This document shows positions 2,487 to 6,688 of a stretch of DNA of 19,722 bases, piece after piece. How positions within the stretch are numbered: the stretch's first letter is position 1; each line of letters starts with the position of its first letter. The DNA comes from a virus (lineage: Duplodnaviria; Heunggongvirae; Uroviricota; Caudoviricetes). The notes below the pieces were generated by a model that worked only from the letters and a program-made list of their open reading frames with translations, did not search any database and was not told the DNA's origin. The stretch is taken from the IMG/VR virus record IMGVR_UViG_2623620491_000017, one strand, 5' to 3'. The translations under genes and the position numbers were made by a program.

Positions 2487-2711
2487 ATGCATACAGTTTC
2501 TGAAAATCAGTGCGGTAAATACGCATTACTGCTGCAACAGGCCAGAACCGAAGCACAGGCTGACGCTGCGACGCGCTTTTCTTCTCATCTTGACTCCATG
2601 ATTCGCCACATCACAAAGGCGGAGTTATCCCGCGTGGAGATAGTCGAGCTGCTCAGTCAGGAGTCGGAAAAATTTCACAATATCGGATTGTCTCGCGGGG
2701 AGGTGCTTTGA
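2487..2711 (+). CDS. Hypothetical early protein (74 aa)
   Basis: GGAGAAAG SD immediately upstream of ATG 2487; translationally coupled to the next ORF; lies within the B-A interval of the early operon. Confidence 0.55.
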
Positions 2712-3013
2712 TGTCCTGTTCTCATTCAGTTGTATTACTGAATAACGCCTTAAAAATCGCCGTTATGAAAAATGGCGATTTGTCTCTTATTCAACTTTGT
2801 CTTGATAAAGAAAAACGCGACATCACTGAATCTGTTATCGCGATTTATCAGAATGAATTAAACCTCATGTCTGATGTGGTCAATTTACTTGTTAAACGCG
2901 CTGTATTCCACAAGCAAATTTCCTCAGTGGATGAACTGACAAAATTAACGACAGAACTTGCCAGCTATTGCGCTGATGAATTTAAAAAACTGAACGACAA
3001 AAGGAACTGGTAA
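2711..3013 (+). CDS. Hypothetical early protein (100 aa)
   Basis: GGGGAGG SD 7 nt upstream of ATG 2711; stop overlaps the start of the next ORF. Confidence 0.55.
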   Translation: MSCSHSVVLLNNALKIAVMKNGDLSLIQLCLDKEKRDITESVIAIYQNELNLMSDVVNLLVKRAVFHKQISSVDELTKLTTELASYCADEFKKLNDKRNW

Positions 3014-3237
3014 TGCCGGACAACGTAGATTTTATTCAGGAACAACAGGCTGAATTACTGGAGCGCCAGATTAACGCGGCAAGGGTAAAACATTGCGGTG
3101 TTTCTTCGCTGGTTTGCGAAGAGTGTGATGCGCCAATACCTGCTGCCCGTCGTGCGGCTTATCCGTCAGCCACGCGTTGTGTTTCCTGTCAGTCAGTCTT
3201 TGAAGCAAAAAACAAACATTACCGGAGAACGGCATGA
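3013..3237 (+). CDS. TraR/DksA-family C4 zinc-finger protein (74 aa)
   Basis: Translation contains CEEC-N17-CVSC (CxxC...CxxC), the TraR/DksA-type zinc finger; AAGGAA SD before the ATG. P2 encodes a TraR-like small ORF at this position. Confidence 0.7.
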   Translation: MPDNVDFIQEQQAELLERQINAARVKHCGVSSLVCEECDAPIPAARRAAYPSATRCVSCQSVFEAKNKHYRRTA

Positions 3238-3509
3238 GTATTCGTATTGAAATTGGCGAACGTTATGTCGTTACCAGTGACAGCTTTCAGTTTGTTCTCC
3301 ACGAGAAAAAGAGAGCGGAAAGCGGTAAAAACGCCGGTCAGGAATGGCTGTCGGTGGTTGGTTATTACCCGAAATTAAGCCAGCTCGTTTCCGGCCTGAT
3401 GCATCACGATATTCTGACCGGAAGCGCAAAGTCTTTTGCTGATTTAAACGCGCAGGTTGAGCAACTCAGCAAGCGTTGTTCAGAGGCTTTTGGCTCATAT
3501 GGCCGTTAA
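3234..3509 (+). CDS. Hypothetical early protein (91 aa)
   Basis: GGAGA SD 5 nt upstream of ATG 3234; stop overlaps the A start. Confidence 0.55.
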   Translation: MSIRIEIGERYVVTSDSFQFVLHEKKRAESGKNAGQEWLSVVGYYPKLSQLVSGLMHHDILTGSAKSFADLNAQVEQLSKRCSEAFGSYGR

Positions 3510-5775
3510 AGCCTCCGGGCGTTTTGTCCCTCCGTCAGCATTTGCCGCAGGCACCGGTAAGGCGTTTACCGGTGCTTATGCATGGAACGCGCCACGCGAG
3601 GTCGTCGGGCGCGAAAGACCCCTTACACGTGACGAGATGCGTCAGGTGCAAGGTGTTTTATCCACGATTAACCGCCTGCCTTACTTTTTGCGTTCGCTGT
3701 TTACTTCACGCTATGACTACATCCGGCGCAATAAAAGCCCGGTGCACGGGTTTTATTTCCTCACATCCACTTTTCAGCGTCGTTTATGGCCGCGCATTGA
3801 GCGCGTGAATCAGCGCCATGAAATGAATACCGACGCGTCGTTGCTGTTTCTGGCAGAGCGCGACCAGTATGCGCGCCTGCCGGGGATGAATGACAAGGAG
3901 CTGAAAAAGTTTGCCGCCCGAATCTCATCGCAGCTTTTCATGATGTATGAGGAACTCTGCGATGCCTGGGTGGATGCGCATGGCGAAAAAGAATCGCTGT
4001 TTACGGATGAGGCGCAGGCTCACCTGTATGGTCATGTTGCTGGCGCTGCACGTGCTTTCAATATTTCCCCGCTTTACTGGAGAAAATACCGTAAAGGGCA
4101 GATGACCACGAGGCAGGCATATTCTGCCATTGCCCGTCTGTTTAACGATGAATGGTGGACTCATCAGCTTAAAGGCCAGCGTATGCGCTGGCATGAGGCG
4201 TTACTGATTGCTGTCGGGGAGGTCAATAAAGACCGTTCTCCTTATGCCAGTAAACATGCCATTCGTGATGTGCGTGCGCGCCGCCAGGCAAATCTGGAAT
4301 TTCTTAAATCGTGTGACCTTGAAAACAGGGAAACCGGCGAGCGCATCGACCTTATCAGTAAGGTGATGGGCAGTATTTCTAATCCAGAAATTCGCCGGAT
4401 GGAGCTGATGAACACCATCGCCGGTATTGAGCGTTACGCCGCCGCAGAGGGTGATGTGGGGATGTTTATCACGCTGACCGCGCCGTCAAAGTATCACCCG
4501 ACACGTCAGGTCGGAAAAGGCGAAAGTAAAACCGTCCAGCTTAATCACGGCTGGAACGATGAGGCATTTAATCCAAAGGATGCGCAGCGTTATCTCTGCA
4601 GCATCTGGAGCCTGATGCGCACGGCATTCAAGGATAATGATTTACAGGTCTACGGTTTGCGTGTCGTTGAGCCACACCACGACGGAACGCCGCACTGGCA
4701 TATGATGCTTTTTTGTAATCCACGCCAGCGTAACCAGATTATCGAAATCATGCGGCGCTATGCGCTCAAAGAGGATGGTGACGAAAGAGGAGCCGCGCGA
4801 AACCGTTTTCAGGCAAAACATCTTAACCGGGGCGGTGCTGCGGGATATATCGCGAAATACATCTCAAAAAACATCGACGGCTATGCACTGGATGGTCAGC
4901 TCGATAATGATACCGGTAGGCCGCTGAAAGACACAGCTGCTGCTGTTACCGCATGGGCGTCAACGTGGCGCATTCCGCAATTTAAAACGGTTGGTCTGCC
5001 GACAATGGGGGCTTACCGTGAACTACGCAAATTGCCTCGCGGCGTCAGCATTGCTGATGAGTTTGACGAGCGCGTCGAGGCTGCACGCGCCGCCGCAGAC
5101 AGTGGTGATTTTGCGTTGTATATCAGCGCGCAGGGTGGGGCAAATGTTCCGCGCGATTGTCAGACTGTCAGAGTCGCCCGTAGCCCGTCGGATGACGTTA
5201 ACGAGTACGAGGAAGAGGTCGAGAGAGTGGTCGGCATTTACGCGCCGCATCTCGGCGCGCGTCATATTCATATCACCAGAACGACGGACTGGCGCATTGT
5301 GCCGAAAGTGCCGGTCGTTGAGCCTTTGACGTTAAAAAGCGGCATCGCCGCGCCTCGGAGTCCTGTCAATAACTGTGGAAAGCTCACCGGTGGTGATACT
5401 TCGTTACCGGCTCCCACACCTTCTGAGCACGCCGCAGCAGTGCTTAATCTGGTAGATGACGGTGTTATCGAATGGAGTGACCCGGAGGTCGTGATGGCGC
5501 TCAGGGGCGCATTAAAACACGGACTGAGAACACCAAATCGTCAGCAAAGAAACGGAATCCCGTTAAAACCGCATGAAATTGCACCATCTGCCAGACTGAC
5601 CAGGTCTGAACGATTGCAAATTACCCGTATCCGCGTTGACCTCGCTCAGAACGGTATCAGGCCGCAACGATGGGAGCTTGAGGCGCTGGCGCGTGGCGCG
5701 ACCGTAAATTATGACGGGAAAAAATTCACGTATCCGGTTGCTGATGAGTGGCCGGGGTTCTCGTTACCCATTTGA
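3499..5775 (+). CDS. A: Replication initiation protein A (HUH rolling-circle endonuclease), about 758 aa
   Basis: Translation contains the HUH motif (PHWHMMLF) and the paired-tyrosine motif YIAKYISK typical of phiX174/P2 A-type initiators. Size and position match P2 gpA. Start set at ATG 3499 (MAVKASG...) rather than the upstream in-frame extension from 3457. Confidence 0.9.
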   Translation: MAVKASGRFVPPSAFAAGTGKAFTGAYAWNAPREVVGRERPLTRDEMRQVQGVLSTINRLPYFLRSLFTSRYDYIRRNKSPVHGFYFLTSTFQRRLWPRIERVNQRHEMNTDASLLFLAERDQYARLPGMNDKELKKFAARISSQLFMMYEELCDAWVDAHGEKESLFTDEAQAHLYGHVAGAARAFNISPLYWRKYRKGQMTTRQAYSAIARLFNDEWWTHQLKGQRMRWHEALLIAVGEVNKDRSPYASKHAIRDVRARRQANLEFLKSCDLENRETGERIDLISKVMGSISNPEIRRMELMNTIAGIERYAAAEGDVGMFITLTAPSKYHPTRQVGKGESKTVQLNHGWNDEAFNPKDAQRYLCSIWSLMRTAFKDNDLQVYGLRVVEPHHDGTPHWHMMLFCNPRQRNQIIEIMRRYALKEDGDERGAARNRFQAKHLNRGGAAGYIAKYISKNIDGYALDGQLDNDTGRPLKDTAAAVTAWASTWRIPQFKTVGLPTMGAYRELRKLPRGVSIADEFDERVEAARAAADSGDFALYISAQGGANVPRDCQTVRVARSPSDDVNEYEEEVERVVGIYAPHLGARHIHITRTTDWRIVPKVPVVEPLTLKSGIAAPRSPVNNCGKLTGGDTSLPAPTPSEHAAAVLNLVDDGVIEWSDPEVVMALRGALKHGLRTPNRQQRNGIPLKPHEIAPSARLTRSERLQITRIRVDLAQNGIRPQRWELEALARGATVNYDGKKFTYPVADEWPGFSLPI

Positions 5776-5844
5776 GTAAAAACACAACGTGATTTGATAT
5801 GGCATTGAATGGCTTATGCGGAGCAGTTATGGGGCAGCAGAAGG

Positions 5845-5882
5845 TCAATAGCATGCTGAATTAGAAGGCTAAATGCTATTGA
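5845..5882. repeat. Perfect 10-bp inverted repeat TCAATAGCAT / ATGCTATTGA separated by 18 nt
   Basis: Read directly: 5845-5854 is the reverse complement of 5873-5882. No flanking T-run, so it is not a terminator; a protein-binding site or RNA stem-loop is possible. Confidence 0.5.
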
Positions 5883-5990
5883 GTGACTAGCATGTCGGTA
5901 AGGACAGCCGTTTGATCCGGGTCATAAAAGGCCATCCATTTAGTCTAATAAAATCATTGCGGGTAACCTTATGTCGACGCATAATTCGTC

Positions 5991-6005
5991 TTGAGCGAAG
6001 TCTTG
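5991..6005. repeat. Direct repeat copy 1 (TTGAGCGAAGTCTTG), in the 3' tail of the early operon about 35 nt before the terminator
   Basis: Exact 15-mer also present at 6255-6269 with unrelated flanks. Confidence 0.6.
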
Positions 6006-6035
6006 TCAGTCTTTCATCGTATTGATGATGGGCGC

Positions 6036-6065
6036 AAAAAAACCACCCTGGCAGGTGGTTTTTTT
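6036..6065. terminator. Bidirectional rho-independent terminator (A7-CCACC-ctggca-GGTGG-T7)
   Basis: GC stem 6043-6047/6054-6058 flanked by an A-run (6036-6042) and a T-run (6059-6065), so it can terminate the rightward early (A) transcript and the leftward small-peptide transcript. Confidence 0.7.
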
Positions 6066-6077
6066 GTTTGAAGCATA

Positions 6078-6191
6078 TTAAAGCATAATGCTGACATTGA
6101 TATTACTGACGTTTACTGACAAACCACTCGGACTACCGTTTGGATAGCCAAAGAGGGCCAGAACGAGAATGCAGTAATAGCATTTCTTCAT
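6078..6191 (-). CDS. Candidate 37-aa hydrophobic peptide (MKKCYYCILVLALFGYPNGSPSGLSVNVSNINVSIML); possible small membrane toxin or exclusion peptide
   Basis: GGAGG (reverse complement of 6196-6200) lies 4 nt before the ATG. The N-terminal MKK is followed by about 12 hydrophobic residues and an uncharged Ser/Asn-rich tail. The gene ends 12 nt before the bidirectional terminator and has the orientation of lysogenic-conversion cargo in this slot. No homology search was possible. Confidence 0.45.
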   Translation of the reverse strand: MKKCYYCILVLALFGYPNGSPSGLSVNVSNINVSIML

Positions 6192-6254
6192 ATTGCCTCC
6201 TGTAAGTAGAGGGCAACTTCCACCGGTATATGCGCTTCTTAGGTGGAATGACTT

Positions 6255-6269
6255 TTGAGCGAAGTCTTG
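6255..6269. repeat. Direct repeat copy 2 (TTGAGCGAAGTCTTG), about 65-80 nt upstream of the peptide start codon on the coding strand
   Basis: Exact copy of 5991-6005. Confidence 0.6.
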
Positions 6270-6330
6270 CCCTGAAATAATGCTCTGTTTAAACGCAAAG
6301 TGATTTGGCATATCACCGAACAGAGAGCCG

Positions 6331-6385
6331 GAAAAACACAACATATAGTATGTCGTTGTTTCTAGACATACATTCTATGTTGTGT
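6331..6385 (-). repeat. Long imperfect inverted repeat (arms 6336-6354 and 6365-6385: 10 bp + internal loop + 7 bp) followed on the minus strand by TTTTT; terminator-like insulator or operator
   Basis: Read directly. The arms are AT-rich, so terminator function is uncertain. It sits between cos and the small-peptide gene. Confidence 0.35.
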
Positions 6386-6669
6386 AACAAGGGCTTTGCA
6401 TTAAACATGTTTGAGATTTTATTGATGTAGCTCAAAGTAAAAAACAGAGACTACGGATGATAAGGTCTTGAAAGCAATGTAAATTTTTTAAAGTTGCCAA
6501 TTGCTTAAAAATGTACAGTTGCGGTATGGCGTACTTAAAAAGCTATGCATGCAACAAGTGAATGTTTTTGCATGCGTTGGGGATGTCCGTTCAGGCTGCG
6601 TGCGGTCAGGACTGGTGCGGATCCATAGTATCTATGCAACTGCATTAAAACCGCCCCGTGAAGCGGGCG

Positions 6670-6688
6670 GGCGAGGCGGGGAAAGCAC
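6670..6688. other. cos: cos site: 19-nt cohesive-end sequence GGCGAGGCGGGGAAAGCAC
   Basis: Exact 19-mer that I recall as the P2/186 cohesive end, located about 170 bp beyond the portal gene stop as expected for P2-type genomes. Confidence 0.75.

Follow-up and report, generated by a model that had tools for sequence, protein, structure and literature searches.

We analysed a 19,722-nucleotide (nt) stretch of Caudoviricetes DNA (IMG/VR record IMGVR_UViG_2623620491_000017; hereafter the window, meaning the whole stretch), a P2-like prophage with an integrase at its left end and replication gene A on the plus strand at 3457-5775, and found that a perfect 15-nt direct repeat downstream of gene A belongs to a small conserved unit that is likely to be a type I toxin-antitoxin-like module. 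Its geometry would resemble that of par/Fst, with a small RNA (sRNA) of ~74 nt predicted to pair with the leader of a messenger RNA (mRNA) for a 37-amino-acid (aa) peptide. Comparison with relatives demonstrates the features that carry this interpretation, namely the repeat itself, conserved promoter-like and terminator elements, strand-specific RNA structure, variation limited to wobble pairs, and constraint on the peptide open reading frame (ORF).

The 15-mer, TTGAGCGAAGTCTTG, occurs exactly twice in the window, both times on the plus strand (copy 1 at 5991-6005 and copy 2 at 6255-6269), and there is no third copy in the window at up to 2 mismatches. A first-pass annotation of this DNA had described the repeat as exact but set in unrelated flanks, which is what we find: copy 1 is bordered by cgtc and tcag, and copy 2 by actt and ccct. 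The repeat has gene A on one side and, on the other, the portal and terminase genes, which occupy the minus strand from 6858, and between its two copies are a bidirectional terminator and an ORF of 37 codons on the minus strand. Between the end of copy 1 and the inverted repeat 6035-6047/6054-6066 are 30 nt, and copy 2 precedes the ATG of the ORF (6191) by 64-78 nt, in agreement with the earlier placement of one copy shortly before a terminator and the other upstream of a peptide start.

Relatives of this region are numerous. Among 5426 complete E. coli genomes, 158 contain the interval 5776-6450 (a 675-bp query), in each case in the chromosome (81 records at 99-100% identity and 69 at 80-90%); the module is carried at 86-100% identity by ~150 E. 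coli chromosomes. The interval also occurs in a few deposited P2-type phages, and none of the RefSeq E. coli genomes listed has a gene annotated under it. With the peptide as query, tblastn recovered full-length 37-codon homologues with 62-68% aa identity on ~390 Klebsiella/Enterobacter plasmids, mostly conjugative IncFIB/IncFII plasmids, and more copies occur in IMG/VR contigs, in metagenomes and on one Citrobacter freundii contig, where the module has no gene A upstream. A scan of genome contigs for remoter relatives returned one locus. The module spans ~640 bp (roughly 5875-6510), and neighbouring genes vary from carrier to carrier. Because ~640 bp of the plasmid version can be aligned with the window, at ~73% DNA identity, despite neighbours that are insertion sequence (IS) elements, transporters or tra genes and despite the absence of gene A, the module is both autonomous and mobile. 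Conservation of the two copies was read from 77 loci retrieved for encoding the peptide. When 12 divergent representatives were aligned globally, just four runs of at least 8 nt proved invariant: the two terminator arms (13 and 10 nt), positions 5993-6005 in copy 1, and GCATAATT at 5979-5986.

The 13-nt core of copy 1, GAGCGAAGTCTTG (5993-6005, plus strand), which as RNA would be the seed GAGCGAAGUCUUG, is unchanged in 77 of 77 loci, and none of these loci lacks it; the outer TT of the 15-mer, which is not conserved as a pair, probably falls at or before the start of the sRNA. The corresponding target in the mRNA, CAAGACUUCGCUC (core of copy 2; 6257-6269, minus strand), is located 66-78 nt upstream of the AUG and is kept in every locus with an intact and long-enough leader, with three point variants only. 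One of these, A>G in five distinct loci (L044, L058 and L067-L069), converts a pair to G.U; another, C>U in L009, gives U.G; and the third, C>A in the L030 group, affects the terminal position opposite G1. Every internal change in the target is therefore a wobble in the predicted RNA orientation and would be a mismatch in the opposite one. Further, positions 14-15 of the sRNA are UC, CU or CC, so that an invariant GG of the leader is opposed by pyrimidines in every case. In each of 11 distinct seed/target combinations, the 5' end of the cognate sRNA and the leader can form 14-17 contiguous pairs, in a duplex that lies 63-80 nt upstream of the AUG. The energy of the seed duplex is -28.4 kcal/mol, compared with -12.2 +/- 2.1 for 1000 shuffled seeds (0/1000 as good). 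Both copies persist through ~27% DNA divergence while their flanks change. The view that the copies are a selected pair, as opposed to a decaying duplication, is upheld by the invariant seed and by the retention of copy 2 in intact leaders.

Copy 1 is preceded by what looks like a promoter of its own. The predicted -35 element, TTGCGG (5957-5962, plus strand; consensus TTGCGR, with TTGCG invariant), and the predicted -10 element, CATAAT (5980-5985, plus strand), which is contained in the invariant GCATAATT and lies 8 nt upstream of the copy 1 core, are separated by exactly 17 nt in 26 of 26 distinct sequences even as the sequence of the spacer varies freely. TTGCGR-N17-CATAAT is the pattern expected of a sigma-70 promoter. 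An A/T-rich block, TAATAAAATCA (5946-5956, plus strand), in which TAATAAA is invariant in all relatives, adjoins the -35 and may serve as an UP element. Conservation begins exactly at G5993, the preceding bases being lineage-dependent, and judging by the promoter the transcript would start at about T5992 or G5993. A consensus promoter scan produced a single hit, on the minus strand at 6009-5981, which points into gene A antisense and was set aside. About 70 nt upstream of the predicted start is a palindrome-like element, TTGAY-N4/5-GTCATA (5912-5926), found in all 26 distinct upstream sequences and in every relative, whether from phage or plasmid; it is similar to CRP half-sites and may be the site of a regulator, and in L008 and L013 the distance separating it from the promoter differs by 14 nt.

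The other end of the predicted sRNA is set by the terminator (6035-6066), a bidirectional intrinsic terminator that would serve both RNAs. It lies between the stop of the ORF (6078) and the seed (6005) and consists of a perfect 13-nt inverted repeat, hence a 13-bp stem, with a 6-nt loop and A and T runs on either side. The longest stretches of invariant sequence in the module are its arms, and the terminator is nearly invariant as a whole, including the loop (CUGGCA/UGCCAG; the loop at 6048-6053 is the same in 12 of 13 sRNA variants), so that a loop-loop contact of the par kind is possible. The loop on the sRNA strand, CUGGCA, also holds a YUNR motif (CUGG). A change in the terminator stem of L058 gives G.U on the sRNA strand and C.A on the mRNA strand.

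Promoter-like hexamers and terminator delimit a putative antisense RNA of ~74 nt (5993-6066, plus strand), and the fixed spacing of the hexamers together with the terminator leads us to predict a dedicated, antitoxin-like sRNA with copy 1 as its 5' end. This RNA would have a free 5' seed, a middle hairpin and the intrinsic terminator, with a predicted folding energy of -26.4 kcal/mol (z = -3.3), and its structure is 97% paired, compared with 48-61% when the partners are slid. Lineages differ in the sequence of the middle hairpin (6009-6033, plus strand) and yet keep its pairing, with 3 of 6 pairs changed on both sides and 91% of cells paired. A 26-aa ORF with a TTG start inside the sRNA was discarded, as it is not conserved and the sRNA varies in length from 72 to 74 nt. 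An Rfam scan (E <= 1) yielded only sub-threshold matches to RNAI and Phe_leader, unrelated RNAs, centred on the terminator hairpin.

On the opposite strand, the best candidate for a promoter of the peptide mRNA is ATGCAAA (6401-6395)-N17-TAGAAT (6377-6372), at 6372-6401 on the minus strand, which is conserved in 30 distinct upstream sequences; in some relatives the -10 is TAAAAT, with the spacing kept. From this candidate, the mRNA is predicted to start near 6365. A match to the P2 late-promoter pattern, TGT-N12-ACA, noticed by eye at 6367-6350, was dropped because relatives do not conserve it. A perfect 10-nt inverted repeat, ACACAACATA/TATGTTGTGT (6336-6345/6376-6385), has a right arm that overlaps the candidate -10; it may act as an operator or belong to the hairpin at the 5' end of the mRNA, and its preservation in the plasmid versions is only partial.

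The leader that would follow is structured on both sides of copy 2. Its consensus comprises six helices that are 98% paired, compared with 36-60% when the partners are slid, and four pairs are changed on both sides, a number reached by 1 of 500 shuffles. Several of the pairs are mainly G.U, where the opposite strand would have C.A, and this assigns the structure to the peptide-sense RNA. Upstream of the target is a long hairpin, CUCUGUU...AACAGAG with an inner GGUGAU/AUCACU (6283-6325, minus strand), which has 100% of cells paired, two compensatory pairs and some of these G.U pairs. Its position upstream of copy 2 argues that copy 2 is transcribed; as strand-specific structure reaches ~6325, a transcript starting downstream of 6255 is unlikely, in line with the first-pass view that copy 2 is within the peptide leader. 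Copy 2 itself overlaps a small stem-loop, GACU/AGUC (6250-6266, minus strand; consensus helix 4), whose loop displays the 3' half of the target, UCGCUC, with an unpaired probability of ~0.9 in the window sequence. Closer to the ORF are a hairpin CCACC...GGUGG (6220-6246, minus strand; 100% of cells paired), with compensatory changes of A-U to G-C and U-A, and consensus helix 6 (6193-6216, minus strand), which pairs the Shine-Dalgarno sequence AGGAGG (6196-6201) with UUGCCCUCU (6208-6216); in the predicted folds of all variants, the Shine-Dalgarno is mostly paired. A 5'-terminal hairpin (6331-6362, minus strand) is predicted more weakly, being found in the window and, with another sequence, in the Klebsiella variants but not in the alifold consensus. 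The comparative evidence thus supports the earlier claim of complementary sequences in convergent RNAs that share a bidirectional terminator.

These elements suggest the following mechanism. The leftward mRNA would start near 6365 and stop at the shared terminator, and its structured leader of ~170 nt, with the Shine-Dalgarno enclosed in a hairpin, would precede the coding sequence of the hydrophobic 37-aa peptide. The rightward sRNA of ~74 nt would be made from its own sigma-70-type promoter and end at the same terminator; with a start at ~G5993, its first 13-15 nt are copy 1. Its 5' end would pair with copy 2 over the 14-17 contiguous bp at 63-80 nt upstream of the AUG, nucleating probably on the UCGCUC loop, and a kissing contact between the complementary loops of the terminator, like that of par, may contribute. 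The bound sRNA would occlude an upstream ribosome-loading (standby) region composed of a U-rich single strand and the target loop, and/or create a substrate for RNase III, with the consequence that peptide synthesis would be kept off. We also considered a structural switch in which binding of the sRNA would release UUGCCCUCU and so allow it to close the Shine-Dalgarno. When 10 variants were folded under constraint, there was no consistent shift, and the Shine-Dalgarno was mostly paired whether the target was blocked or not; for this reason we favour standby occlusion and/or RNase III cleavage.

The product of the mRNA, MKKCYYCILVLALFGYPNGSPSGLSVNVSNINVSIML, is encoded by 37 codons and a stop (6078-6191, minus strand) and is a candidate toxin or small membrane peptide. 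AGGAGG stands 5 nt upstream of its ATG, and its length is 37 codons in all relatives but one, a database relative with 38. Relative to the window sequence, the ratio of nonsynonymous to synonymous change (pN/pS) is 0.16-0.45, with pS up to 0.76, and the ORF is under purifying selection. The peptide has a grand average of hydropathy (GRAVY) of 0.77 and is laid out as MKK, a hydrophobic core of 12 residues (4-15), GYPxGxxSG, and an uncharged tail of alternating hydrophobic and polar residues; the version in the window has no charged residue past position 3. It had no match in Pfam, NCBIfam (E <= 10) or PADLOC, and one non-significant match in PHROG (E = 0.34). Sequence databases label it 'hypothetical protein' and nothing else, as with ECW_m2278 in E. 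coli W. HMMER, run exhaustively against 1.84 billion representative proteins, returned 7 relatives, all members of this peptide family; the two most divergent of these, sought with a covariation test in view, were not placed on DNA. An extended ORF of 88 aa (6078-6344) was rejected, since stop codons interrupt the in-frame extension in relatives.

The alternative that survives best, although we regard it as unlikely, accepts the regulation as described and takes the peptide to be non-toxic: a small protein, either exported or in the membrane, whose function would be physiological or in lysogenic conversion and whose level the sRNA would tune in a manner comparable to TimP at native expression. 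The N-terminus, MKK followed by the 12-residue hydrophobic core, does resemble a signal peptide, the C-terminal half LSVNVSNINVSIML is uncharged with alternating hydrophobic and polar residues, no toxin family matches the peptide, and TimP at native levels permits growth without its sRNA (PMC7667032). Three observations are in better agreement with a toxin, although none is decisive. The module is a self-contained unit on plasmids and prophages, which fits addiction logic better, and the parts of the sRNA are better conserved than the ORF. In addition, the disruption that we observed affects the leader of the peptide and not the sRNA: on plasmid CP137446.1 (L011), ISKpn34 (IS region at about 284-1470 of the locus) replaces the peptide promoter and the leader, including copy 2, to ~35 nt before the ATG, whereas ORF, terminator and sRNA gene are intact. 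This asymmetry, in which a leader is lost and the seed never is, fits addiction logic but is suggestive only.

A second alternative dispenses with a separate sRNA and makes the 3' tail of the early gene A transcript the only RNA to contain copy 1, and hence the only repressor. The first-pass annotation had proposed this tail as the antisense partner. Between the stop of gene A (5775) and 6035, no site resembling a terminator has a convincing T-run, so a read-through RNA should include copy 1 and would carry the seed. As an additional source of antisense RNA the tail is plausible, and in the prophage the gene A read-through mRNA may provide this second source during lytic growth. As the sole source it is improbable. 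The module keeps copy 1 on the Klebsiella/Enterobacter plasmids and on the Citrobacter contig, where no gene A lies upstream; the hexamers have a fixed spacing over a variable spacer, and conservation sets in exactly at G5993. Moreover, the P2 early operon is repressed in the lysogen, which would leave the peptide unrepressed if the gene A tail were the only source. A dedicated sRNA is thus the more likely partner, given the promoter-like hexamers at copy 1 and the plasmids that have the module without gene A.

We give still less credence to a third possibility, also raised by the first-pass annotation, in which the two copies are DNA sites of one host DNA-binding protein that acts by looping or by co-repression of two promoters, without RNA pairing. 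The conserved spacing of ~264 bp between the direct repeats and the location of copy 1 at a predicted transcription start would suit such sites. However, copy 2 is ~100 nt downstream of the candidate peptide promoter and within strand-specific RNA structure, the motif is not palindromic, no protein gene travels with the module, and the variants are G.U-compatible in the RNA orientation only.

Finally, a chance repeat or functionless decaying duplication is effectively refuted by the conservation pattern: among 500 dinucleotide-preserving shuffles of the window, 127 contain a direct 15-mer repeat somewhere and the window has a second, evidently meaningless exact pair at chance level (AAAAACGCCGGTCAG at 3327-3341/18067-18081, 14.7 kb apart), which makes the repeat by itself only modestly significant, but just 9 of 500 have one within 400 nt (about 2% given proximity), and the copies outlast ~27% DNA divergence where their flanks do not. 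Our claim that the repeat is selected is accordingly based on its conservation in relatives. A 30-nt imperfect direct repeat (5780-5809/6291-6320; 73% identity) was evaluated as a second, DRb-like pairing site and judged to be due to chance; the pair is not kept in relatives of 86% identity and has no plasmid counterpart. Its second copy overlaps the conserved leader hairpin.

Several points weigh against the toxin-antitoxin interpretation. The two transcripts, pairing in vivo, toxicity and the mode of repression are all inferred. The hexamers are imperfect: the -35 of the sRNA promoter fits 3 of 6 consensus positions, that of the peptide promoter is a poor match, and the consensus scan called neither promoter, in the case of the sRNA because of that -35. 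Seed and target never change together in the retrieved loci, so that there is no two-sided covariation and support for pairing consists of invariance, 2-3 wobble-compatible transitions and the pyrimidine pattern. Folding indicates no clear route from binding ~70 nt upstream to access to the Shine-Dalgarno, which makes the repression mechanism a conjecture. Many type I toxins typically have a charged C-terminus, which the peptide lacks; it may not be toxic, as it looks in part like a signal peptide followed by a beta-strand.

Among characterized systems, the layout matches that of par/Fst, as had been suggested. The par locus of pAD1 has convergent promoters, a bidirectional terminator, direct repeats transcribed in both directions and a hairpin that sequesters the Shine-Dalgarno (Weaver review, PMC7472228), and in T1TAdb the convergent arrangement with a shared terminator is limited to the Gram-positive Fst/RNA II and SprA1 families (PMC8594479). 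Both par (Fst/RNA II, E. faecalis pAD1) and SprA1/SprA1as (S. aureus) resemble the module as predicted here in having a toxin mRNA convergent with a short RNA, a shared terminator, an intramolecular hairpin that hides the Shine-Dalgarno, and plasmid and phage carriers (PMC7472228, PMC8594479). The differences are also clear. There are two repeats in par (DRa and DRb), which cover the Shine-Dalgarno and start codon, whereas the module has one conserved repeat, 63-80 nt upstream of the AUG; the module peptide lacks the Fst signature, with no charged C-terminus, no PXXXG and no Pfam/NCBIfam hit (signature as in PMC7472228); and the hosts are enterobacteria, in contrast to the Gram-positive families for which T1TAdb lists the layout. 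The module shares with the type I class at large an ORF that is under coding constraint and specifies a small hydrophobic peptide (<60 aa).

In outline, tisB/istR-1, zorO/orzO, shoB/ohsC and dinQ/agrB of E. coli have ~15-30 nt of complementarity in the 5' untranslated region (UTR), far upstream of a ribosome-binding site that is structured. The module is like them in its small hydrophobic peptide, its predicted upstream pairing and a predicted sRNA that does not overlap the ORF, and the model of a standby site and RNase III applied here is borrowed from these tisB/zorO-type systems. Their sRNA genes are 5' and divergent, with no shared terminator (PMC8594479), whereas the one predicted in the module is 3' and convergent and overlaps at the terminator only, and there is no homology to their toxins in Pfam or NCBIfam or to Rfam antitoxin models. 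TimP/TimR (ryfA; Salmonella and E. coli) involves a peptide of ~38 aa with a signal-like N-terminus that long went unannotated and an sRNA that pairs with the 5' UTR (PMC7667032). The likeness lies in the short signal-like peptide, the oversight by annotation and the proposed 5' UTR-pairing sRNA, but TimR is divergent, upstream and core-chromosomal, whereas the module is convergent and mobile, and the Rfam scan found no match to ryfA (RF00126). In Hok/Sok, the antisense RNA is overlapped over its whole length by the mRNA leader, while the predicted sRNA of the module is not opposite the leader, and the peptide has no Pfam/NCBIfam hit to the Hok family. By these comparisons the module falls outside Fst/par, tisB/zorO/shoB/dinQ, TimP and Hok; it is best described as a new, unannotated family, and it looks like a convergent, shared-terminator type I family of enterobacteria. 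We found no enterobacterial convergent type I system in the papers searched, nor any match there to the peptide or seed strings bar one unrelated primer. The motif is absent from the whole of pKPN3 of K. pneumoniae MGH 78578, the strain of a study by differential RNA sequencing (dRNA-seq) and RNA interaction by ligation and sequencing (RIL-seq) (PMC10907235).

If confirmed, the module would represent an unannotated type I toxin-antitoxin family that is present in roughly 3% of complete E. coli genomes and on hundreds of clinically relevant conjugative plasmids of Klebsiella, and the par/SprA1 architecture would not be limited to Gram-positive bacteria. It would also be a functional element in the P2 defence hotspot that may affect the maintenance of prophages and plasmids or the exclusion of phages, and its invariant 13-nt seed and target would offer a compact system in which to study control by an sRNA far from the ribosome-binding site. 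A more far-reaching proposal, which we consider speculative and rather doubtful, is that this is the first par-like type I family (3'-convergent, with a shared terminator and pairing by a 5' repeat) in Gram-negatives, spread between P2-like prophages and large Klebsiella plasmids, and the only cargo of the prophage gpA-gpQ hotspot. It would act as an addiction or abortive-infection device whose antitoxin is wired to the phage cycle, with the dedicated sRNA in the lysogen and the gene A 3' UTR in addition during lytic growth.

The interval that separates gene A from the portal gene in P2-like phages is a hotspot of anti-phage cargo (Rousset et al., PMC9122126). The P2 cos sequence, GGCGAGGCGGGGAAAGCAC, is located at 6670-6688 of the window, and the record of the linear phage fiAA91-ss starts exactly there, which identifies the interval as the cos-proximal P2 defence hotspot. 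In the window it holds only the peptide/sRNA module, and as no gene is annotated under this, protein-based surveys would see the hotspot as empty. In the window and in L003, the module is followed directly by cos and the portal gene, and in four prophage relatives of 86-94% identity (L001, L002, L004 and L005) by genes for an ImmA/IrrE-family metallopeptidase and a hypothetical protein (at about 2640-3670 in locus coordinates), the module being at the gene A-proximal edge of the variable cargo. The exact peptide of the window is that of ECW_m2278 in E. coli W, and KO11FL, E24377A and two assemblies of ~4.83 Mb labelled DH5alpha, a label that looks odd for that strain, have the module as well.

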